Part shown: positions 10,861-64,000 of the stretch, piece by piece | How positions within the stretch are numbered: position 1 is the first letter of the stretch | Layout of the letters: each line of letters starts with the position of its first letter | Assembly (NCBI RefSeq): GCF_964204645.1 | Contig: NC_134025.1 | Span: forward strand, 5,952,001 to 6,016,000 | DNA: 64,000 nucleotides | Source: Tubulanus polymorphus | Lineage: Eukaryota > Animalia > Nemertea | Direction: 5' to 3' | Program-made: the position numbers and the translations under genes | The notes under the pieces: model-generated | What the model was told of the DNA's origin: nothing | Database searches by the model: none | Seen by the model: the letters and a program-made list of their open reading frames with translations, nothing else

Positions 10861-28932
<18,072 letters not shown>

Positions 28933-44715: not shown

Positions 44716-46362
44716 TCAGTGAGTCTTGGTTTTTTTATTACCCGAAGTCAGCGCCGAGTTTGCTAATTTGTGCTGAATACTTTTCTGCAACAGCTGCATA
44801 TAGATTGGACAGAGCACTTTTTCCCAGATATGATCCGCTAAACTGTCTATATGTATACCGATACCGCGACAGTCCCCGCTATAACGAACATACGACCAAA
44901 CGCTGAACAAAACCACTGATAATCCGAGAATAATATTGAACAGATTAGCCAACGATTCGAGCCCGATAAATCCGAACACGCCCGATACGATATAACAAAC
45001 GGCCATAATAACGAACAACGTGGCCGGGGTACGCGCTGCGCTGAATATATTTTTACTGTCGTTATGTTTGACGAAGTTCTCGTACAGTTCATCCAAATCG
45101 ACGTCGAGTTTCTCCGCGTACCGTTCGCTGAACGACGGCCCTCCCATTTTCTTTGTATTAATGAACAGCGACGTGGCGAGTCTTTTGCATCGATTGTGTT
45201 CGCTTTCTAATAACTGCGGACCCATGTACGGTTTGTCGCCGCCGCAAACTTTCTCCATCTCTTTGTTGTACGTATCTTTCGCGTTTGCTACAGCGGCGAG
45301 GTTATTTGCTTCGGCAGTTGCTTCTAACATCGATTTCGGTTCGGGTAATTCGTCGCCTTGATAGATTTTGACGTACGCCTTGAAATATTCGAGTAATTCT
45401 TTCCCCGTCACCTTACAGCCGTTGATTTCTTTGACGATCAGATTTTTCGGCGACAGAAGCGCTGGAACAAGTTTTTTCAACTGTTCCTGAAAGTCGAGTT
45501 CGATATCGGCGATACGACCGTCGAAATGCGGATTCGTAGCGACTTTCAAACCCGGGTGCGGCATCAAGAAACAACTTATTTTTTGAAAACACGAACGGAT
45601 ATGTTGACGAATTTGTTGCAATTCGGGATGTTGTCGGTCGCTCGGTTGAAGACGTCTTTCTAATATTATATCACCTCCTTCTTCGCCAAACGGGGCTTCG
45701 TAAGGAAAACACCAATCACGTACGAGGAATTGAAGCATCTGAAACGGTTTCGCGTTGTTGTTGTCTTCTAAAGCGAGTCGACCATATTCAGTAAATAGTT
45801 GTAAATGCTGCAAATCGTCTTCTTGTATATTCATAGATATATTGTATACTTGTACGGAGCTGACCATCGTGCTGAGCGCGAACACCGTTGCGCAGTCTTT
45901 CACCGTCGACTGACTATCGAACGCGCCCTGAGTATCCATCAACAGAAGGCTGACATCGTCTCCGTTCGGCAACTTGAACACGAATGGCTCGCTCCACATC
46001 AATATTCCAGTTGTGTCTCGTTCGGAACCGCCGCGCCATGAGAATCCCTCCAACGGAGTGTTAGCATCGCCGAGCCAGTTCTGATCTCCCGATCCTCTGA
46101 GATAGCGTAAAAAGAAATCAAGTAGAAACGATTTCCCTTTTCTAAATGCTCCGGCCACGGATACAATTACGACGTATTTGTCTCTAACCCGTTCATCGGA
46201 TAGAATTTCTTGGAGAGCTTCTTCATTTAATTCGAATGTGTGGTCGTCAGTTGCAGTTATTATCTGGATGGGCTGTCCTTTCAATCTAGATCCATTTAAT
46301 GAGAGTGGAGGTTGATAATTAGATGAATCTAACGCTGGTTTTTTCACTGAAGCGTCCGCCAT
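44716..46362 (-). CDS. ATL: Atlastin (ER-fusion dynamin-like GTPase), single-exon CDS, 548 aa
   Basis: First ATG at 46362 (MADASVKK; the ORF track starts earlier at a GTG). Motifs: G1 GAFRKGKS, G2 [10 protein letters not shown]3 DTQG, G4 RD, 3-helix bundle ([16 protein letters not shown]), TM hairpin, amphipathic tail and a terminal KxKxx (KTKTH). Confidence 0.97.
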
Positions 46363-47275: not shown

Positions 47276-49004
<1,729 letters not shown>

Positions 49005-50230
49005 GATTATGAATCGTCAGGTCACTATGTTGTATAAAGCGTGCTGGTTCCTCGTAGGTTGACAGGTGAAGTGCGGCCTTAATGCTGGACGGTACTGCTA
49101 GTGGACAATATGGAAACGAGGCTGCCGATGGCGCATAGATGACCCTGTCTCGATCTATGCCCGTTCTAGGTGTAAACGTTTCCAATATATGTTGTCATTT
49201 CATTTATGAATATTTCATGAGGGACCCTTTTGTTGATTGCTTGTAGGTATGGGGTTTGCTATATATACGTTGGACATCCCATTAGTAATTAAATGCCTTT
49301 ATATCGACTAATTGTCATCAATAGTGTCCACGCAATCGAATTAAGCCGAAAATATGAAATATTCATGATTTTCTGTTAGCAACCGACGGTGAACATTTAT
49401 CATAGAAATTGAGAACAAAATATAGCATGCATTTAAGTATTGGAACTTTCGTGAATCCAGCCTGTATTGCTTAAATTTGGTTCAAAAAACTGCTGACGCC
49501 CATGCACAACGATGCACCGCAGTTGCGAATCACTTCACAGGCCCGTTGGAAGAAAAACAGGGTTGGCCCAAAATCTTAAAAGAAGGAGGACCCCAAGCCG
49601 ACTTTTAAATTTCTAATGCCATTAAATGCCATCGATGAGGCACCCTAGAATGTAATCATCCCCTGCAAATAAGACGACTTTTTCAAATGACCAACAATAA
49701 TCTATTCGATTTTCCAAAACAGATGGTGTATTGTCTGAAATGAAAATGTTTGCGGTCAACCTTCATATCCGTAGCCGGGTTGCACATGGATCAACGCCGA
49801 CAATTTAAAGCAGGAATCGTCCGTATCTGGCTATTCTGAGCAGAAAATGTGTTTTTGGAGAAAAAAACCCCGGATCTAAATAAAACGGGGCATCCTAGCG
49901 ATCCCCTTCCGATGGGATCTTGCTTCCGAGGGCCGGCGCGTGGAGAATCGTTCTCTCGATTTCTGATACCAATATGTATATATCATAAATGAACAGACGG
50001 AAGCTAAGGCTGACGTCCGATCCAGCCGAGGATGAACGACGGTAAAATCAACATATTTTTCATTAAAATGTTGGTCCGCTTTAAGCTGCTCCGGTTCCGG
50101 AACTGTTCGATATCATACCATTCTTTCCAATCGTGATTTTGACTCATCAAATTCAGTATTTTTCAAAATCTGTTACTTCCCGAGCACGTTAGTCCTCCGT
50201 CGTGGTGGTTGTGTATATTCTTCAAAGCTC

Positions 50231-50827
50231 GTTCAAACCCAGTAATTGCTGATACTGATTCAGAGTGGTCCTGATGCTGAATAGAGAATGTACAGGGGTG
50301 TCCCAGGTTCAAACCCAGTAATTACTGATACTGATTCAAAGTGGTCCTGATGCTGAATATATAAAGGTTGTACAGGGGTGTCCTGAATCAGTTATCAGTA
50401 ATTACTTTTGTTAAGATATCAACATTTTACCGTACGGTGCTGCCCCTATGCTCATCGTTAGCGGGATTTTTATACACTAACGTTAGTCAACTCTGGCAAG
50501 CTAAGGTCACGGAGACTGGACAGCACGTCGATTGCAGAGTTGACTTTAGTTAGTGTATGAAAATCCCGCTAACGATGAGCATAGCGGCAGCACTGTACGG
50601 TCTAGACACCCCTGTACATCCTCTATTCAGCATCAGAATCACTCTGAATCAGTATCAGTAATTACTGGGTTTGAACCCGGGAACCCCCGTACATCCTCTA
50701 TTCAGCATCAGAACCACTCTGAATCAGCAGCAGTAATTACTGGATTCGAACCCGGGACACCCCTGTGCATCCTCTATTCAGCATCAGGACCACTCTGAAC
50801 CAGTATCAGTAATTACTGGGTTCGAAC
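50231..50827. mobile_element. Foldback-like element: inverted arrays of 75-76-bp units around a central hairpin
   Basis: Left array has 2+ units (period 76) and right array has 3 units in reverse orientation; central inverted repeat at 50429-50495 / 50535-50601. Confidence 0.8.
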
Positions 50828-51468
50828 CTAAGAGACGATCAGGAGGTCATCGGCTACATTTACCGAAAGCATGAAGAAAATAAAAACAATGATTTTTACA
50901 AGAGAAACACAAATCTCATGTAATTAATCATGTAATGTTAACACCAAAAGAAGGATACTGGGTGCCACTTTTAAAGTTAACTATTCAGGACTCTGCTTCT
51001 GTATATAAAAATCAAACCGATCATCAGTGGAAATATCAAATTAGCGGGTGGTGAAATATATATGCCGTCACAAAATATTGCCGAAGGGCACTTAAATTTT
51101 AGACCGTACGAACAATGTATTGGGCAATACGGTCTGGATCCGCCCCTGATGGCTACAGTGACAATCAAAAATATTGCGTAATTACTCTTCGGCAGCTCAA
51201 CACTCGCTTCTAACCGGTCAACAAGTGTCAGTGTGAAGTTAAAGTTGTAAGCTGTATTGCCAATATTCGATTATCATATTTTCCGGACATTCTCGTCTCC
51301 GCACAATGTTGGTGGGAATATTGGTTTGAAAAAAGAGGTGGATTGCAAGATAACAAAAAACCACTGACTGGTGAACTAACAAAGTTCAGACAGAGTAGCT
51401 AAACAGATAAAGAATTTTAATCATATTTATTCTCATACAACAATTATACAAAATGCCAGGTTTGTGCT

Positions 51469-53690
51469 CGAGGAATTATAACGTAAGCTCCTCAAACACG
51501 TGGACTGTATTTCAAAAACAGTCCAACCATGGACGCATAAACTATAAACTAGAGTTTATACATCCATGGTCCAACCATAGACTCTAAAACAGAAACGTCT
51601 ATGGCCTACAACCATGGACTCTCGAGTCCATGGCTCCCCGCACTAAAACCAGAGATAAACCTGGCCAAATACTCTGGAAAGCGTAGGATTAAGTAATCAA
51701 TCTGATTTACATTTTTACATCATTTTATTTTCACATATCATATTATTATTTTTTAGCTTATTTTCTCAAATTTTAATAGTAATTTCATTTCTTTTACTAT
51801 GAATGAAATTGTAATAACTCTAAACCACAAAAGTAACATGTAAAGTATTTCGAAGTTTTAATATACAATACATCTCCACTACTACTGATTTTATACAATT
51901 TGCATCAATAGGAAAATAACAAAAATACACAAAGAATTATAAACTTTTATCCATAAAACACAGAAAATTGGACTAGTCTGAAAGTCTAAGATTATGAATT
52001 TGACAATTCATGAGGTCAATATAACCGACACTTTGTTATATTTCATGAAATATGAATCTACCAAGTCAACTTTTCAAATGACATTTAATTATCAAGAAAA
52101 AGCTCAACTAGAATCGATACGACCTTAATTCAGCGTTTGAAGAACAATTGACATGAACATTTCGTTTTTGATTTTAAACAGTCTTTGATTTAATTTTCAA
52201 TAACATTATTTTAAAAGATAACTAGAGTTTTGCCACCTTTGCCTTGTCTTAAGAGATTTTCAGACATGATCAAATTGGTTATTTTCTCAAATGTTACATT
52301 TAATGCAAAAGTATTTTGGAGGCATTCTCTTCTATGCATTCAGCAAGATAAATCGAGTATATAAATATTGTTCAACTGTCAATTTGAATAGAGCCAGGGC
52401 AATTACTACATGTTTAATAACTTATTGCTTAGATATCTACAAATAAGTTAGATTCAATAATTTTTTGAGGTGCTTCTCGTGCAGATATTTCAGGACCCAT
52501 ATAGACATATTTAAGCCATGGTTTTAGAGTCCATATATAGCTAGCACAATTTAATGATTAATACTGTTCATATATCCTCATTAATCAAGAGAATGCTCTT
52601 CTATTTTGCTCGTCCATTTTCCATAAGGACCTTAATAAAAATAGTATTTTATGAACCACTGAAAAGCACCACAGTGAAAAAGTTGCAATACACGTAACTG
52701 AACAATTGAAAAGTTTTAACATGAATGACGAACATGTCGTTTTTTTTTAATGAGTTATTTAAAAACAGTTCAGAATAAAAACATGAATACATTACACCTA
52801 CAAATTCACTCACACTCTGGAGAGCGTAAGGTTAACTAATTAATCTTACTTATTACAAGAAAACTAAAAACATTGCCAAATTTTCCTTGTCTTTAAGAGA
52901 TTTCTTCAAACATTATCAACTAGCTTATTTCACAAATGTTACATTTGAAATAAAGCACGGGTCTGATCTAAGCACTAGTTCAATTGCCCGGGACAAGTAT
53001 ATTTTCATTAGGGCAAGTAGGTTATCATTATCGCTCATCCACCGGGCTTGTGTAATTCTATATCTCAAAGCTTTTATCCCACTCGATGCAAGGGATGATT
53101 GTGTCACAATCGGACTGCTCATGTAGGGCACGTTGAGGGGGCAAGCGATATTACATATTATGCTTGCCCTGCGGTCGAATGGCATTTATTCCTTAGATCA
53201 AACCCTGCAAACTATTATAAAGGAAATTCTTCTTGTCCAGACATTACAGGCCCCACACAGACGCGTTTAAACCGATAATCAAAACAAAGCTTGGACGATT
53301 GACCAATTAGCACTGCATCCACAAGTTATCCTCTATTTTCAACAGAGCCTTAATTAAATCAGTATTTTATGAACGACTGATAAGCACCAAAGTGAAATTG
53401 TTGCTATAAAACTTAACAACTGAAAAGGTTCAACATGAATGATGAAAATGTACATTGTTTTATTCACACAACAATAATATCTTAATCGAGGAATCATCAT
53501 GTAAGTTCCTAATTTACAAACACGTGAACTGTATTACAATAACAGTCTCTAACATAAAGCGTTAAAACTAGAGATGAAACATACTGATTCACTCCAGAAA
53601 TCTTGGAGTATCAATTTATCATTCTTAATTTATTTTTCGTAAACATTACTTTCACTTGAAAACTAGAATTTTGCCAACTTTGCCCCGACT
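51469..53690. repeat. Diverged local duplications (mosaic of paralogous blocks)
   Basis: 51469-51525 resembles 53488-53548; 52643-52737 resembles 53361-53450; 52200-52300 resembles 52885-52948 and 53641-53685. Confidence 0.7.
51528..51632. mobile_element. Three stacked mini-hairpin elements with CAT[G/A]GAC...GTC[C/T]ATG ends
   Basis: 51528-51568, 51576-51603 and 51613-51632; the first is flanked by a 7-bp direct repeat GTCCAAC. Confidence 0.6.
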
Positions 53691-56403
53691 TTCAAGCACC
53701 TTGGCATTAAATACTAACTGTTCTGACGTTTTTTCTTCCAGTTTCGAAAACATCAACATAATTATACAATGGGTAACTAATCGATAACATCAATAACGTA
53801 AGTTTATAGCTGTTTTAAATTCTTTCTAAAAAGTAAAATGTATGTACATGATTTTAGATAGTAAGTCTGCCCCGTAAGTCTACCCCAGTATAACAATAAA
53901 CAGTCACAGCAGTGATTGAGCGCAGCTAGTTCTAAGGACGGGTCGATCTTTCATCACAGTTATTCAAAGCATTCTATCATATCAGTTATTTTTTTAAGTG
54001 TATTCGATTTAGTTAAGGTTTATAGTTATTTGTTTTGTTTATTACAGTAACTGAGTTGATAGAATGCTAAAAACAACAACAGAAAAGATCTCGGGTTTTC
54101 GCTATACTTAGGGAAGGTTGTTCGATAAATGAGAAAACCTTGTTGATAAATAAATATTTGAAAAAATGCCTTTTCATGTAAATAGAGTTTGTATTGTTTG
54201 TATTGTTGCTTATTATTTTATCTATTTAAAAAAAAAATATTATTCATTTATTTATGAACTTGCAATTTGTATTATTTACTATCTATTATTTATAATTTTT
54301 TATTTATTGGTTTTTCTTATTTATTAATGTACTTGTATTTTGTATCATGTATTATTTATACTCCTCTATTTACAACTGCAGGCATTTTTTCACTGTAAAG
54401 TTCTGGGCCATTTTAGAAAAGCACTACTGATTCACTGCCGCTCCTAAATAATCATTATACACCCGATTTGAAGCTAAGTAATAATTAATGAGAGCCATCT
54501 CGTGATATGGATTTACCCATTACAATAAAAGAAGTTCAAACAGCTATAAACAATGTTAAAACGTTCAAAATTAGTCCTAGCTATAACTTTAGCTTTACCT
54601 CTCAAATGTAAATAATGGTCTCCTTTTAGATAAAGCTTTTGCTTTCAAATACGTAGCATCGAACAGATTGATGGAGGCTCAAAGTTACAACTCCATGTGA
54701 AAATCGACATATATGATTCATTTCTCAAATTGGTTACACGGGCCTTCCAAAATATCAATGCCGTCAAATTAGTACATCTTCAATTCTGCAAATACTTATT
54801 TGTACATAGAACGTTATGTTCTATGTTTCCTAACCATGTGATATCTACAGGGCAAAGCCACTGTGTTGACTCTGTTTAACTATGGTAAGCACAATAAAAC
54901 TTACAATATCATGTTGAAACTATATCTCAGTTTAGGCGTTAACTCAACAGACCTACGACTCAAAACTAGGCGCTCGACGGGACCATTTACTCCTAGTGAC
55001 TAACCAACTCGACTTATCTTTCAACCTAAGATCGAAGACCAATATTGTGAATTAATTGAGCTTAGCTTTTATTAGACTCTAAGAAGGATATTTCTGTCAC
55101 ATTGCAAAACACATGACACATCTTTTTACAAACGCATTATAAAATAGTTTTCTCTATATTGAAATATTCAAACATAGAGTTCCTTTCTCAGGCCAAAGGA
55201 ACCTAATTATCTAACTAATTATCTAACTATTTTCAATATTCGACTCAACAACTATTTTCATACTCCATTCCACGCAATCAGGTAAATTTTTTAAACTATG
55301 TTACCTATCAGACTGGTCTGAAAAAGGGTGATATTAGTAAAAAGAATCAATACTTTACTACAGAGGTCTTTGCCGCTGCTAGATCTCAGTGTTCAAGAGA
55401 TAAACCATTGTCTTTGAATCAGATTTTATAAGATAATCCATTGTCTTTGCTGCGCGAATCGGTGTTTATAAGATACACTATCATCTCTGCTGCTCCTGAT
55501 AAAATGTTTTATAGAAATCAACCACCGATTGTAGAAGATTCCATCGTTGAGTGATTAATCCGTCGCTGGCTCCTAAACTTCTCATCTGGGCTTCTGCAGT
55601 TTTCATCAGCAAATGGGTCAATGGGTATTTGTCTACTTGTGTCTTCTTCAGGCCATTATTTCCGGGATGTAGTTTGACTGAAACAAAGTGAAGAAAGCAA
55701 AACATTTTAGACAGATTTATCATAACTTACATGTCATTTCAAATTACAAGCCACCGTGTTTTTCACTTAGTTAATATAGTTATTTCCAAAATCAGAATTA
55801 GGTTCATTGACGTCAATTGCCGATTGAAACCCCAAATAATAATTGCAGTAGTAGGACTAGTTCATTAATGTTTAAGCTTGGAGTAATCATTTGAAAAATT
55901 TATTACTCCAAGGTGCAAGACTAGTAAAGATAAAAGTTCTAAGATCAGCCATGTGGACAGGTAAATAGATTTCGATGATAATCACTTATCAAATCATATT
56001 CATATGAGGCCTGAAATTTCTATATACCGGTAATTTCCATCTAATGAGTTTGATTCTTCTGTGGGTTGTTCAAATCCGTAGATTTCAGATGAGTAGTTGA
56101 TTTTAAGCTGGTCTCTTTCTTATAGTTGAAACTTAGCTGCAATGAGTAAATAAATATATCCTGTAATCACGACATTTAGAAATCATTGTAATAACTCCAT
56201 GTGTATCAAGTTACCTTTTATGATTGCTGGTTTCATCATCGACGAGGATCTCCTAAGTCGGTTGGTTTCTGTGCACTGTTTTCTCTAATTGGCAGATTTT
56301 TGATGAGTTGTTGACCTCAAGCTCTCGTTTGACTTTTCGAGTTGGTGTCCCTTACAAACCTACCACACCTGGCGGGAGCGATACGGCGGTTTTTTCAAAA
56401 TCG

Positions 56404-57188
56404 GAAATCGAAGTACAGATATAGTTGCGTGATCGGCGGTCGTTTTTACAGATCTTTTTTTTTTTAAGTCCAAGAACATAATTGGTAATTCGGTTCCGGT
56501 TCATTCAAACAATCTTTTATTCTGCCTAATTCTGATTTTGGAAATAACTATATTGTTGAAGATAATTTTACAATATTTAGTCTTTTTTAATGTAACTAGT
56601 CCGAAAGTTTACAATGTTTAATAATTTTGTCTAACTTCAATTTTTTTTGGTCGTTTTCACCGTTTAAATAGTCGAAGCACATATTAAGTGACTGATTGGG
56701 GTTAACTTTTTTTGTGCCTAATTTAATACATCGAGATTTTGGAAATAACTATATTTTACAATATTTGGTCTTTTTTTCATGTAACTAGTCCGAAAGTTTA
56801 CAAGGTTGAATAATTTTATCTATTTTTTTCTGCCTAATTTAATACATCGAGATTTAGGAAATAACTATATTTTACAATATTTGGTCTTTTTTTCATGTAA
56901 CTAGTCCGAAAGTTAACAAGGTTGAATAATTTTATCTATTTTTTTTCTGCCTAATTTAATACATCGAGACTTTGGAAATAACTATATTTTACAATATTTG
57001 GTATTTTTTTCATGTAACTAGTCCGAAAGTTTACAAGGTGGGAGAATTTTGTCTAACTTGAATTTTTTTGTCATTTTCACCGTTTACATTTGTCTAATTT
57101 TTTAAAGTTTATTGTAGTTTTTCGCGAGTATGTCTGAAATCGAAGTACATAATTGGGAAATTCGATTCCGGTTCATTCAAACTATCTT
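56404..57188. repeat. ~116-bp minisatellite (3 near-identical units plus 1 degenerate) bracketed by a direct repeat
   Basis: gcctaatttaatacatcgaga...gtaactagtccgaaagt units start at 56716, 56832 and 56949 (degenerate unit at 56524); gaaatcgaagtaca...ttccggttcattcaaac at 56404-56510 and 57136-57182. Confidence 0.88.
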
Positions 57189-60100
57189 CCAATCAGTCTG
57201 AAACGGCAAGCTGAAGAAAAGAGCAGAACCTTTTGAGCAGAAAATCCTTTGGAATATCACTGATCATAATTATCATGTCAATTCATATATAAGATCAGCA
57301 ACGTGGATCCATACGTAGATTTTAATAATAGTCTTAAATGATATTTATGAGATTCAACTCATATAGTAATTCATCTATATTCTAAATATCTAAGCAATGG
57401 TTGATTATTATAGTTTAACAACAATTCAACTAAAGCATCTATAGTCATCTCTAGGAATACCAGAGTTACAACAAATTTAGTAATGCATAATCAATCTTAT
57501 CAAATCGTTTTTGAACTGTTTTCTCTTCTATCTTCTTGAAATTCTTGATGTGTCTTTTATTGAAACCCAGGCCCATCATACAGTGCAAACCTGCTAGTAA
57601 TATTGGCCTATATATATTTCGATTGTCAGCTAAACCATGTTCGTATTATCAAATTTACTTAATCGTCAGTTAATAAACTTAAGAGATGTTTTCTACCCAC
57701 AGATGGCGACATCTGTACCCAGTGAATGGTATTCTAATCCATTTCATTAATTCTAAATATTGCTCCTAATATATACAATGATTTTGTAATTATGATAATA
57801 TAACTAACTGAAGAGTGAGTGCGCTGCCAGCATTGAGCACACTGATCCTATAAGTAACATGGTTCTACAGATTTAAGAAACCTCGAATCATTCCCACAAC
57901 TCGACAAATCCAGAATTCTGCAAAGCCTTAAAGATTCAATAAATCCCACGCACAAGAGACAGAGTTAAAACATACCCAGTATTCTTTATATATCAACCAA
58001 TATTGAATTATACTTATCAACCCCTATGGTTTAGATTTGAGCACTTTTACCTTATATGAAGATGCTGAATTAGATACCTAATCTATAAGTTAATTGATAA
58101 TGCCCTAGCTATAATTGAAATTGTCTCGGACAATATTTCATATGGGGCTTGAAATTTCTACACGAGAAGAATTTCAGATCCGGTACGAATTTGAATTAAT
58201 CACTATTTGAACTGCTAATTTTGCATCAGAGCTTTTGATACCTAGCTTAACTAACCCATAATCCCCCAAAACCTAACTGATTCAACAGATCCCACACACA
58301 CATGTGGCCCAGTTAGACGCAGATGACATTGCGCGATACAGTCGTCTCATCCACTGTGCAATTTTGAATAAGTTTCACTTATATTCATTATATTGAATTA
58401 ATTTTAATCAAATTCTAGGTATCTAAGCGAACCAATAATTAGTAATCATACTAGCTATATTTTAATAGTCAGTTGAACAATATTTATATGGAGCCTGAAA
58501 ATCTACATGAGTAGAATTTCAGATGTGGTGAATTTGTCACTATTTGAATTCATCAGAAATTAACGATAAAAAAGCATATTTTTAGTGGTAAATTAGAAAT
58601 TCCCTTAGCCGAATGGCTATTATATAGTTCACTGTGTATAAGGACCAAAAGACCTTGTTATGACCGGACCTCCCTGGTGTGGTGCGAGTCATGATGCTAG
58701 AAAATAGTTTGAAGGAGAGGGGTTAGTAAAAGAGAGCTATTAGCAAGAGGAATAAGACCTAAGTTTAGGATATCCTGTCACAATAAGGCTTTCAATCTGA
58801 TATACACAGTGAAATTGAAATATTCCCCCTTCCAAATCCAGGAATGTATTTGTGCACAGATTCGATCGGAAGTAAATCTGCGTTTTTGGCAATATGATTT
58901 TGGCAATATGTATCAAAACTAATACAGCTGTGAGAAGACACCATAGGTTCACTTAGATACAGATAAATAAATGTGCTCAGATACACATGTATCAGCTACA
59001 TTTTAAATGTCCATGGAATTAGAAATAATTTCACATAACAATTGAATTAACCTTAATCGATCTAAGTAATACGTTAATGAGTAATTTATCTTAGATTCTA
59101 ATTTTCAGTTAAACTATATCTAATATGGGTCACTTGACACACAGTATGGCTTTTAGATATTAATTGAATCAGTTAGGTTTGAGTAAATTTTGCAAATAAT
59201 GAAAAGCATGGGTAGTCGTCGTAAGCGCGGCAGTTGGCGTTACAGAACTGATCAGTCAATGAGACTGATTCACTTATAGATGTGCTCAAATATATTATAT
59301 ATTTCAGCTATATTTCAATAAATAGGCTATTTATGATATAAAAAGTTTTTGATCTAACATCAAATATTGAATTCATCTTAATTGTGAATATCTAAGCCAT
59401 TTTTCCTGGCTGTATGCTAATTGTCAGTCAAACAACAATTATCATGCATCAGCCAAAACAAGACGCAGTGTTTCAGGAATGAATTAAATCAATTAAAGCT
59501 TTGGTTTATTCTGGATTTATCAAAGTGTTCAGACCAAATCACTGTTTCATAAAGACCTGTAGTCCATAGTTTTCCCCATATAACACCAGACCTCGATAGA
59601 GCCCTAGACACTATCTTATGAAATTCATAACTGTTATGTGTGAGGCAGCACACAGTATATATTGTAAAATACCTCAATCTTAATAAATTTATCAATATAT
59701 TATTTGTAAAGAAATATCTATCAACCAACGATATAGTTTAATTGATATATCTTTTAGTAAAAATTGTCCTATCTAGATCTTGATTGTCAGTTAAACAATA
59801 GTCATATGAGGCCTGAAATATCTACGGTACATTCGAATAATTTCAAATGTCACATAAGATATTGAATTTACCTTAATTGTACGTACTTACAAAATCTTTT
59901 AATCAATAACTGACCAATCTACATTTTAATTATCAGACCAAAGAATATTTAAAGGACCTCACTCAATCATTTTGTCTAATATTGTAAATATTCAAGCAAT
60001 CATTGCCTAGCTATATTTCAATTTACTACCGGCCACAGAGCCTCAATAAAGTAGTGCGGAGATGGTGAGCTTGACCAGCGCCTATGCATTCTACCCCAGA

Positions 60101-60495
60101 TATGAAAAATCAACTTAGCTTTATGTATGTATGTATTCCTGTTGCCATGCGGGATGAGCCATGCAAGACTGCCAGGTTTGGTTGCGACAGGTCTTTGCGA
60201 CAGGTGTTTGGTGGTACTTCAAGGTGGAGTCTTTTGTGGGCACTTCTGGTGGGCAGATTTTAGATGGGCCTTTCCGGATTAACCTGAAATGAGTAAAAGA
60301 ACGATATTCTGTAGTTACACAATCCTTTCCGTATCACGCATCGTAATTTACATGTGTATCAATTAACTTTCAATATTGCTGAGTTCAGTGTTCTTTTTTG
60401 GCATCGTCTTCGTTGTAGTCACCTTCAGCATCTTCTTCAACTTCTTGGGAGTCCTGAAATGAAAAAAAAGAGAAGAGCGATGAAAACCTGGTACA

Positions 60496-61269
60496 GAACA
60501 AAACTAATGTTCGAAAGCTTTTCAGCTCTCCGTCGCCGGTCACATGCCGAGAACACCAGACAATGAGCCAGCCAGGAATATACTGCCCTCTACACGCCCT
60601 CACACAGAACGCGAAAACCAGAATGACAACGCCTCACATTCCCCATCTAACTGCAGGATGTACTGGGCGACGTCAGTAACTGACAAACCTGTAAAATTGC
60701 ACGAAACACAAATAGCGCAGTACAACCAGCTTGACCGGGTTGAGATTCAGGATCTCAACTAGCACTCAAAAGCGTGACAAGAGACTTCATCCACTGACCG
60801 AGGTTGTCACAAGGACACAATGAAACTAGCACTCACAAGCCGACAAGAGACTTCATCCACTGACCGGGGTTATCACAAGGACACAATGAAAACTAGCACT
60901 CAAACTAGAAATCAAAGAGCGTGACAGTAGAATCATCCCTCAGCCGACTCAGAATACCAGAAACAAAGAGCGTGACAGTAGAATCATCCCTCATCCGGGC
61001 GGTCACAAGGACACAATGAATGCTAGTAGCGTGACAATCCAGTATAACCGCTCCATTTGTATCCCGCGCAATCCCGCAGATATGCCCGTCATTGACATCA
61101 CTCAGCACACTTTGTAGATAGGTGGGGGCAGTGAGGCCTCGTCATCCTGGTTTTCGTGTTCCGTATGAGGGCGTGTAGAGGGCAGAATTTCCTGACCGAT
61201 TCTTTGTCTGACATCCTCGACACATGACCGGCGAAGGAGAGCTGACGCTTTCGGCCATTAGTTTTGTTC
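60496..61269 (-). repeat. Long diverged inverted repeat (arms 60496-60680 and 61088-61269) with ~65-bp tandem repeats in the spacer
   Basis: The arms align at roughly 78% by eye and share gaacaaaactaatg, cagctctcc.tcgccggtca and ctgccctctacacgccctca; the spacer has repeated gacaagagacttcatccactgacc / cacaaggacacaatgaa. Confidence 0.88.
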
Positions 61270-62972
61270 CAGCAAACGTCGAAATTCGACAGAGAAATCG
61301 GCCCTGAAAAACAAAACGGGTTAATTGCTGAAAAATAGAACGGATTAATGAACACGGAACAGTACAGGACAGCACGGAGACAAACAGTAACACATAAAAC
61401 ATAAAGACGTCGTTCCTCAGGAAGCAGGAACAGGAGCAGGAGCGGGAGCGCAGCGAAAATCGCCAGGAGGAGAATCCACGGTAGCATGTTCACAGTGTGA
61501 GTAAGCTGAGGTGAATGGTCTTGCTTGTGTACACCGTGGTCAGCCGGTGACGTATTCAATAGCGCGTGTCAGAATGATATCAACAACTCTGAAAACCCGC
61601 AATTGTGTCTCTATTGTTGAATGGATTTACATTATGAGGTTCCACCGCCGGGTTGAATACGCGCCAGTAGTCAGCTGAACAATATAGTGGAGGAACTTTA
61701 TTAAGGCCATGAAATAAATTACTTGATTCCCAACAGCTACTTCCGAATTTATAAGCATCCGCCTGTTTTTTTTTCTTAAATTCTAGAATAATTTATAAAT
61801 TATACCGACCGATAGCACTTCCAGTACAGATTCACACCAACACAGGTCTTCCTATCATAGAAACCGCGTAAACATTTACTAATGAAATTAGTTTATTAGT
61901 CACGGACAGTTCATGCACCCCGAGATAACTACCTCACATGCACGAGGAAAGCGGTCTATTTGAGTCATTGGGGGAAAACCCACTAATACCATGTATTCAC
62001 GATTATTCATCATTCATACTGTTATCACAGAATCCCGTCAATAGACAGATTTTCATTAAAAAAAACTCCTCGATGCAATTGACGGGAGATATATGAGGCA
62101 TTTTTAATTACTTGAAGCCAGAAAATGAACGATCATGAAATGCGGCTTGAAGGTGAACTTTTTTGGGCGCGAAAAAATTGGACAAAACGAACGTAAAGTC
62201 AAAGACACATGCTAACATTTAATATGATAGAAAACCATTCAATAAACATGTGAAGGGGCAACGGGTTGTTAATTTTCGGGTTTTAGGATCGCTAGCCCTG
62301 TTACGTTAGAGATTGTACTGAATGTCTCAATGCGTCAATATTCCCTGATACGCTACAAAAGCGGTCGTCACCGTAATAACGACCTACATATGTATCTACG
62401 GAGGTCAATCGCTGAGTGCTGGTACTTAAGTAATTAAAAACTAATTAAAAATTAAGTAATTTTAATTACTTTGAACTTTCAAGTCGTGGAGTCTCTTTTC
62501 TCTCATGGACCCCTTTCGGTGAGGCCAGTGAACCCCGACCGCCACCACCCCGCCTACCGCCAGGCTTTCTCAATGTACTCCTCTATACAAATTCATAAAA
62601 ATTAACCCCATGATATTTTGTGAATATTCTTTGTAAATATTCTGAAAATTATACAAAATCATTTTGTTATCCTTAATTCACGTATTTAAACTACCAGTGC
62701 GACGCGGCCCGCGAGTATTGACGAAATACGTCCGTGACCATCATTTTCGTTGCCGCGATTTAGCCAATGCCCATGTGTCCCGGATGTAAACTACACTTTT
62801 TGAGAAGGACGTATGGAATACCTCAAGGGCCATACGACTTATGAGTTACGTTTTACGAGTTACGATTTACGTTTTACGAGTTAATATGTCAAAGTCGAAA
62901 CTTGGTGAAGCGCACAGCCAGAGTTTTATCGATTTAAATAGAGGCGAGTGCCCTTTCGGCAACTTATATAGA

Positions 62973-63520
62973 ATTCTACGTTGTAAAAAACATAGGTTTT
63001 GCGGGGGGGCACGTGTTCGGTGTGGTCCGTGGCCAAAGAAAATCACCCAAAATGTCGAAGATCTATTCAAGCGAAGATTCGCCGTGATCAAATACATGTA
63101 TAGAAAAGGAATTCCTTTTTGCGAAAAAAAACATGCTTTGAGAGTGTTGATTACAAATTGATAAGCCTTGTTTGTTTTATCTTTCATACCAGAATAAATC
63201 TTTCTGTATCGTCAGATATCTTCTACGAACGGCTTTAACAGTTATGTTTTACACAAGAAATTTGTTTCCAAGTTCTACATTGTAAAGAATGTAGGTTTTG
63301 CTGAAGGAAGGCACCCGGTGGCGTGACCAAAAAAAATCACCCAACATATGATAGACTCGAGCGAATAAAGGGACCCGTGATTAAAGAAGAAAAAAAAAAT
63401 CATTTTCTGCGAAAAACAACGTGGGAGTTTGGGGATGTTGATTACATATTGAGAGCCTATTGTTTTATCGATTATACGAGAATAAATTTTTCTGTAGTTA
63501 AAAAACGTCAGATTTCTACA
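62973..63520. repeat. Two diverged ~300-bp-period direct repeats in TE-like sequence
   Basis: ttctac.ttgtaaa..taggttttgc ... aaaatcacccaa ... ttgattaca.attga ... agaataaat ... cgtcagat at 62973-63226 and 63273-63520. Confidence 0.75.
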
Positions 63521-64000
63521 TTAAATCTCATGGCTTCAATAGTTTTATACGTTTTACACTAAAGATTTGTTCCTAAGTATTACAACGGGTTGCATGGGTA
63601 CGGAATTAATGGAACAACGGTATTTTAAATACGGATTAATAGCGAATTTTACTCGAAACGGAAAAGGGGATAACGTTTGAAAAACGGGAGTAAAAAACAC
63701 ATAAAGATACGATATGTTAAAAAACGAACGGCATTTTACTCCCAAGGATTGGCAAAATTTTTAGTTAATTATTCAGTTCTTGTGTGTGGGGCGGGTCGGT
63801 CATTTTGTAACACGCGGACCGCGCGCGCGCGCGTTATTCTCCGGGACTCGACCCTTAGTGATGCTGTGAAACCGGCGCGCTTGTTATTCTAAAAAATTCG
63901 ACCCGTTGCTAAGGGACTGTGCTTTTTGTGGGATTCGAATCCAGTCTTCCAATCGGTTTCTACGGAGAAATACGAACTAAAAATAACATTTTTTGACAAT

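Follow-up and report, generated by a model that had tools for sequence, protein, structure and literature searches.

Is the inverted repeat near the right-hand end of the window, the 64,000-bp stretch of Tubulanus polymorphus DNA analysed here, the stem of a selected RNA or the remnant of a mobile element? A first-pass annotation had treated it as a single locus with a selected double-stranded stem on the minus strand, possibly a Dicer or ADAR substrate, and had named as alternatives the CpG decay of an old foldback transposon and the fixation of edited sequence through retrotransposition.

The inverted repeat and the minus-strand unit

Local alignment confirmed the inverted repeat, with two arms of ~225 bp each (approximate limits in Table 1) rather than the ~185 bp first described; the identity of ~78% was borne out (76-78%). 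The extended local alignment (60496-60768 against 61017-61269) contained 193 matches, 44 transitions, 16 transversions and 20 gap columns. The G-U excess noted for the minus strand was also found, as 32 of the 44 transitions give G-U pairs on that strand and 12 on the plus strand. The predicted fold of the 831-nt region 60480-61310 had an energy of -436.5 kcal/mol (z -28) on the minus strand and of -324.7 kcal/mol (z -14) on the plus strand. For the consensus arms of one set of copies, subfamily A (see below), the duplex asymmetry was -72.6 kcal/mol, and strand-neutral decay simulated with the same number of changes gave 0.4 ± 21 kcal/mol (most extreme value in 200 runs, -56.9). The asymmetry thus lies beyond all 200 simulated decays, and the greater stability of the minus strand holds against these controls.

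Only 11 of the 44 arm transitions are located at CpG, and CpG decay was rejected as the source of the differences between the arms. Kilobases of sequence on both sides of the hairpin are common to its copies; the arms are therefore internal and not terminal repeats, and an identity as a foldback element or MITE was likewise rejected. Thus, the arms are neither the terminal inverted repeats (TIRs) of an old foldback transposon nor different at CpG sites alone. Among copies, CpG sites were more often variable than other sites (56 of 124 against 90 of 441).

The inverted repeat forms the 5' part of a unit on the minus strand (Table 1). The right-hand limit of the unit, 62118, is a recurrent break, found with unrelated flanks in five copies; a few copies share the flank as far as ~62535 or 62873. 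The 5' block contains two 24-bp repeats, each ending in TTTTCAG, and its open reading frame (ORF) starts with an ATG at 61487, has 129 codons and extends into the 5' arm. Both splice acceptor motifs described before are present, with unequal conservation: TTTCAG/GGCCGAT at 61303 is intact in 80 of the 89 copies, and the exact ttttacag/gt before 60688 in 49 of 89, with a variable pyrimidine tract. The exon-like units behind the stem have acceptors at 60454 and 60284 and a donor-like GTTAA at 60367. Further downstream lies a chain of short exon-like units, variable in number, each followed by GTAACTTGAT or GTTAAGTTGAT and an intron; these introns end in TCATTTCAG or a similar sequence. Tandem repeats of 116 bp inside the unit (56534-57055) vary in number between copies. 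The G+T skew across the unit ranged from 0.41 to 0.64 by region, and a uniform skew was not seen. Rfam covariance models run over 49500-64000 gave one chance match (E 0.23), outside the hairpin unit. The sequence of the loop repeat differs among subfamilies A/C/D, B and E. The loop folded better than shuffled sequences in A, B and E (z -2.6 to -8.5) and no better than shuffles in the C and D copies tested.

Table 1. Features of the hairpin unit in the window
Feature	Position	Strand	Evidence
Whole repeated unit in the window, ~12 kb, multi-exon	50228..62118	-	Shared flanks among copies
Conserved U-rich 5' block with ATG-led hydrophobic ORF	61304..61487	-	Sequence comparison of copies
Stem 5' arm, ~225 nt	61047..61270	-	Alignment, fold, covariation
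Loop of ~66-bp tandem units	60722..61046	-	Repeat analysis; covered by X5 contig
Stem 3' arm	60496..60721	-	Alignment, fold, covariation
Candidate A-to-I site, UAG context, 3' arm	60648..60648	-	X5 compared with genomic copies
Two exon-like units behind the stem	60120..60453	-	Homologous to spliced units further down
GT-AG intron	56137..56214	-	Spliced out in X5 contig
GT-AG intron	55678..56027	-	Spliced out in the same X5 contig as 56137..56214
AATAAA, likely poly(A) signal	51426..51431	-	Between-subfamily homology stops ~10 nt behind; X5 cover ends in the region
75-bp satellite, both orientations, around a palindrome with 67-bp arms	50228..50828	.	Left edge of the window copy

Transcription was assessed with run X5, which consists of unstranded contigs from another sample and is not on record as RNA. 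Its contigs cover the single-copy atlastin gene and the hairpin unit from ~51,000 to 61,800, not spacer DNA, and the depth over the 75-bp satellite was ~2, as against 4,098 in run X1 and 70,891 in run X2. One X5 contig joins 56136 to 56215 and 55677 to 56028, and both joints are GT-AG on the minus strand. Loose ends of X5 contigs match exon ends of other subfamilies that precede GT in the genome. No clean genomic junction corresponding to the joints was found in 179 loci (28 with both sides of the first joint, 3 with both sides of the second), among which there was one weak partial match of 32 nt. No splicing of the exon-like units directly behind the stem was seen among the X5 matches listed. 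Run X6, guessed to be RNA, gave no cover on the unit and three poor pieces on calmodulin. Together, the cover and the two joints strongly suggest, by one run from another sample, that the unit is transcribed and spliced, in line with the first-pass annotation. The annotation had also suggested removal of the loop as an intron; since an X5 contig spans 60699-60942, such simple excision is not borne out. Elsewhere in the window, the atlastin gene (44719-46362, minus strand), whose product is identical to a database protein labelled Tubulanus polymorphus, has a coding sequence without interruption and is covered by X5 contigs; a calmodulin-like gene with introns (47300-48100, minus strand) is almost without X5 cover; and 26016-26894 is an 880-bp (AT)n tract.

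Position 60648 read as G on the minus strand in all five X5 contigs and in none of X1 or X2; in the genome it is A in 88 of 89 copies and T in one. We regard this position as a lead for ADAR editing and not as proof: it is at least one candidate site, seen in X5, another sample. To that extent the proposal of an ADAR substrate is sustained, and editing of the stem by ADAR seems to us somewhat probable.

Copies, mobility and coding potential

The hairpin is not a single locus. Of 175 candidates for the 831-bp region in the same genome, 40 were scored, and each was full-length at 98-100% identity. A 20-mer present in both arms had 218 exact matches in the genome, a second such 20-mer had 287 hits, and the region of the 5' ORF had 153 matches. 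These counts, which are lower bounds, suggest a family of ~150 dispersed copies. All but one of 100 listed 20-mer positions on contigs 1-6 lie below 8.6 Mb or above 20.8 Mb. At least five subfamilies can be told apart, between which the identity of the arms is 72-92%, and the copies are mosaics that exchange segments. Among 99 loci examined, 89 had both anchors and entered the 89-copy alignments, the ten without an anchor being omitted; L054, with a deleted 5' arm, was left out of the tests. As 79 of the 99 loci were picked by hairpin match, retention rates are biased upward; among 20 divergent loci picked through the 5' region, 18 had the inverted repeat. No family like this one was found in the literature, as far as the texts available to us extend.

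The copies retain introns and carry no A tail behind the AATAAA. A processed retrocopy was therefore rejected, edited RNA was not fixed by retrotransposition as the first-pass annotation had allowed, and the copies spread as DNA. Eight subfamily-A copies have, behind the satellite, a segment of 770 bp that stops abruptly at a CATTATG terminus, beyond which the flanks differ. This segment is the left end of a separate, non-coding element of 5.9 kb, which has short, symmetric TIRs and occurs in at least 40 copies. The hairpin unit has one fixed and one variable end, and the window copy is without the CATTATG end. A target duplication would span one base at most: a match of this length was present in 6 of the 8 TIR-element copies and in 4 of 8 copies that carry the hairpin. 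Sequence comparison thus points to a likely one-ended mobilisation of subfamily-A copies, joined to the TIR element through the 75-bp satellite. That satellite is the 3' flank of subfamilies A and B; other subfamilies have different 3' flanks, so that the hairpin gene is older than its TIR partner. A Helitron carrier was rejected, because the partner end belongs to an element with symmetric TIRs and no long ORF; the genome has 58 Helitron matches, mostly mid-chromosome.

The 5.9-kb element has CATTATGAG...CTCATAATG termini, subterminal hairpin motifs and 110-bp tandem repeats; its loci include G000:C4:18690953-18696843 (L246), L244, L248, L250-L253 and L255, many of them mid-chromosome. The 75-bp satellite carries a GGTTCGAACCC palindrome, which we take to be tRNA B-box-like, interleaved with the palindrome of 67-bp arms. 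An 18-mer of the satellite has 254 exact matches, often in arrays near contig ends (e.g., G000:C2:444909-450231).

Could the unit instead encode a small membrane protein, read from the ATG at 61487 and followed by a structured 3' region? The frame is open for ~100 codons in most copies, and it had 2 stop variants against 6-8 in the other frames. Its dN/dS of 0.76, however, resembles that of the five other frames (0.77-0.85), and of 24 distinct indels 16 cause a frameshift. No Pfam family reached the cut-off in nine ORFs taken from the unit; proteins of 70-226 residues, queried with the 129-aa ORF, yielded 14 candidates, none at E 0.01. The downstream exon units contained stops and frameshifts on inspection. 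The 5' ORF thus shows no coding selection, and the gene family is apparently non-coding, as judged from these comparisons; a membrane protein is most improbable.

Covariation and G-U bias in the stem

The stem is preserved in every subfamily. Fifteen copies were compared across its 226 pairs. Both sides had changed in 54 pairs (41.4 ± 3.6 after shuffling), and 133 cells were double-changed (67.1 ± 6.7 after shuffling); none of 500 shuffles reached these counts, which overstate the independent events because the shuffle control ignores the relatedness of the copies and the copies are mosaic. The number of further pair types equalled that of the shuffles (263 of 500). RNAalifold returned the same helix, with double changes at 41 of 168 pairs. 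A and E108 differ by 27 double changes where 14.4 are expected; 16 replace one Watson-Crick pair with another. Double changes exceeded independence in 21 of 21 pairwise comparisons. At least two different Watson-Crick pairs occurred in 51 columns, in 13 by transversion. The basal 20 columns of the stem are the most conserved; a conserved basal 24-mer had no match in metagenome and viral contigs. Within subfamilies, the stem is more variable than the loop.

The pairs are biased toward G-U. Each of 14 representatives had 158-175 Watson-Crick, 19-34 G-U and 6-14 A-C positions; G-U exceeded A-C in all 14, by 2-3 to 1, and distinct G-U states outnumbered A-C states (107 against 66, p 0.002). Of 7 duplexes compared, all were more stable on the minus strand. 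Some G-U pairs are common to nearly all copies, and G-U pairs adjoin double changes. Private mutations in the stem of subfamily A were strand-symmetric (C>T 22, G>A 24, A>G 10, T>C 8); strand-biased mutation was therefore rejected as the source of the G-U pairs, and a simple mutation bias does not explain their excess. Within subfamilies, variants shared by several copies showed no significant excess of pair preservation over private ones (p 0.16, 0.17).

The two arms diverge alike between subfamilies, with 5'/3' identities of 92/89, 85/87, 81/79 and 72/74. In a tree, the 5' and 3' arms of subfamily E cluster together, and those of A-D cluster by side. Since both arms drift equally, it seems to be pairing that is kept, rather than a fixed guide sequence, and the family to be maintained on its structure. 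Equal drift fits a self-targeting or decoy role better than one outside target. Conversion of DNA from arm to arm, or template switching, can also produce double changes, but no strand-specific excess of G-U. The covariation across subfamilies backs the selected double-stranded stem postulated for the minus strand, and we consider selection on the stem at the RNA level quite probable.

Possible roles of the hairpin RNA

The genome has one Dicer_dimer match and two RNase III loci. The Dicer scored 525 bits to fly Dcr-1 and 127 to Dcr-2, and no Dicer-2 was found in the genome, a search in which a very divergent copy could be missed. The second RNase III locus is presumably Drosha. With only a Dicer-1-type gene found, the Dicer-2 route of the Drosophila hairpins to which the first-pass annotation had likened the locus is not supported here. 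There are four adenosine-deaminase loci, one closest to ADAR2, and six Argonaute-family loci, by inspection three PIWI-like, two conserved AGO and one divergent AGO; an AGO-clade gene lies at G000:C1:4.26 Mb. This Dicer and Argonaute set agrees with the available portion of PMC11114477, in which nemerteans have siAGO and no DICER2; that portion also reports a single nemertean small-RNA library with no endo-siRNA signature, and leaves open whether DICER1 supplies siAGO.

We propose that the stem is the 5' part of a spliced, apparently non-coding minus-strand RNA, its arms changing together and keeping a G-U-rich pairing. This RNA would be a long double-stranded substrate edited by ADAR, and the single Dicer-1, or Drosha, would cut the stem into small RNAs; were the cut to be set from the base of the stem, the first 5' end would, speculatively, fall near 61257. 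The natural match of these RNAs would be the opposite arm of the family itself, by which the family may restrain its own transcripts, and the young subfamily-A copies likely move as DNA with the left end of the 5.9-kb TIR element. To this reading, a multicopy family of spliced hairpin RNAs that is edited by ADAR, cut by Dicer-1 and self-restraining, we assign a probability of about 0.5. Processing by Dicer-1 and self-silencing, taken by themselves, are tentative proposals. It is unlikely, in our estimate, that ~150 self-propagating hairpin genes yield, independently of Dicer-2, small RNAs that load the siRNA-type Argonaute of nemerteans.

A stable, ADAR-edited long dsRNA might also escape dicing, and bind or titrate proteins such as Dicer, ADAR or dsRNA sensors, or retain its transcript in the nucleus, like rncs-1. 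Such a role would suit a structure that is kept while both arms drift, a branched, repeat-built loop assembled together with the arms in X5, the candidate site at 60648, and a host in which no Dicer-2 was found and from whose phylum one library, in the available text of PMC11114477, had no endo-siRNA signature. It leaves the upkeep of ~150 copies unexplained, however, and the siAGO proteins of nemerteans (same source) need some RNA source; we regard it as rather unlikely. The unit might, alternatively, have no RNA function and be an inverted duplication within a selfish mobile unit, re-matched now and then by template switching or conversion; G-T would be favoured over A-C during copying, being better tolerated in single-stranded DNA hairpins. 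The mobility of the unit, with its one fixed and one variable end, the mosaic copies and the scant sign of pairing selection among young copies all speak for it, and template switching restores hairpins in one step, according to the part of bioRxiv 10.1101/2023.04.19.537475 that was available. Yet conversion has no strand preference, and all 14 representatives favour G-U on the strand with the splice sites and poly(A) signal; moreover, G-U pairs lie beside the double changes, some in nearly all copies, and the hairpin predates its present TIR partner. On balance, we find an absence of RNA function decidedly unlikely.

The arms might, finally, derive from another gene or transposon, which a classical hpRNA would suppress in the manner of Nmy and Tmy. 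The anatomy of D. simulans hpRNAs matches, with a spliced transcript, as X5 suggests here, a hairpin near the 5' end and satellite-linked amplification (PMC10317233, PMC12224907, as far as their available text goes). Against this, a search of 271 loci (1.7 Mb) plus the window, together less than 1% of the genome, revealed no outside target or solo-arm homologue, and genome-wide the family's own copies saturated the matches; two unpaired matches to the arm pattern were damaged family copies, neither arm is more conserved, and Dicer-2 was not found. Suppression of an outside source is very improbable.

Most known examples of long endogenous hairpin RNAs with selected pairing come from flies and nematodes. 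Fly hpRNA stems are reportedly rich in G-U pairs and show compensatory change. The family shares with foldback elements and MITEs a high copy number and inverted arms around a repeat-filled loop, and differs in that its arms are internal, with kilobases of flank common to the copies. Maize Mu killer and transposon-derived hairpins are inverted repeats tied to a DNA transposon and proposed to silence their own family. The hairpin family is likewise tied to a DNA transposon system, but its arms match neither the partner TIR element nor any transposon in the loci examined, and here the hairpin gene itself was multiplied. C. elegans rncs-1 is a single gene, whereas the hairpin family is mobile, has at least five subfamilies and has a more imperfect stem. 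According to the available part of PMC4408787, rncs-1 and editing-enriched dsRNA loci of C. elegans are long non-coding dsRNA edited by ADAR, as is proposed for the hairpin family, and the latter are enriched on distal chromosome arms, as is the family here. Drosophila hpRNAs (hpRNA1, Nmy, Tmy, hp-tHMG cluster), in the available text of PMC10317233 and PMC12224907, likewise have a long inverted repeat near the 5' end, in a spliced, probably polyadenylated transcript such as X5 suggests for the hairpin unit, and are also young and lineage-specific; an imperfect inverted repeat that folds on the transcribed strand is a further feature in common. In contrast to their few loci or 13-copy cluster, the hairpin family has ~150 dispersed copies in a lophotrochozoan host, with both arms drifting equally and no Dicer-2 or target gene found, and because Dicer-2 was not found we do not file it in that class. 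It probably works like Drosophila hpRNAs or rncs-1.

The hairpin family is a real and unusual family of structured-RNA genes, the mechanism of which we in part infer. The load of the nemertean siRNA-type Argonaute is an open question in the available portion of PMC11114477, and the family provides a high-copy candidate substrate; if its small RNAs did load that Argonaute independently of Dicer-2, this would be a mobile hairpin-RNA system outside insects, and would explain the survival of that Argonaute after the loss of Dicer-2. The five subfamilies form a natural covariation series for long dsRNA within one genome, and the family would exemplify a non-coding gene that spreads through a satellite by means of one transposon end.

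Several individual copies are of note. L188 (G000:C4:20948000-20954999) lacks nearly the whole hairpin and keeps the 5' block and exon chain, and is a possible natural control. LINE elements lie within or beside family copies, a CxC5 (KDZ-type) ORF lies inside one, and a Polinton-like gene set adjoins one TIR element (among L052, L084, L078/L190, L053 and L245). A family copy and an exon of the ADAR2-like deaminase (G000:C6:22408192 and C6:22412835) lie ~4 kb apart on opposite strands, a closeness that is probably due to chance.
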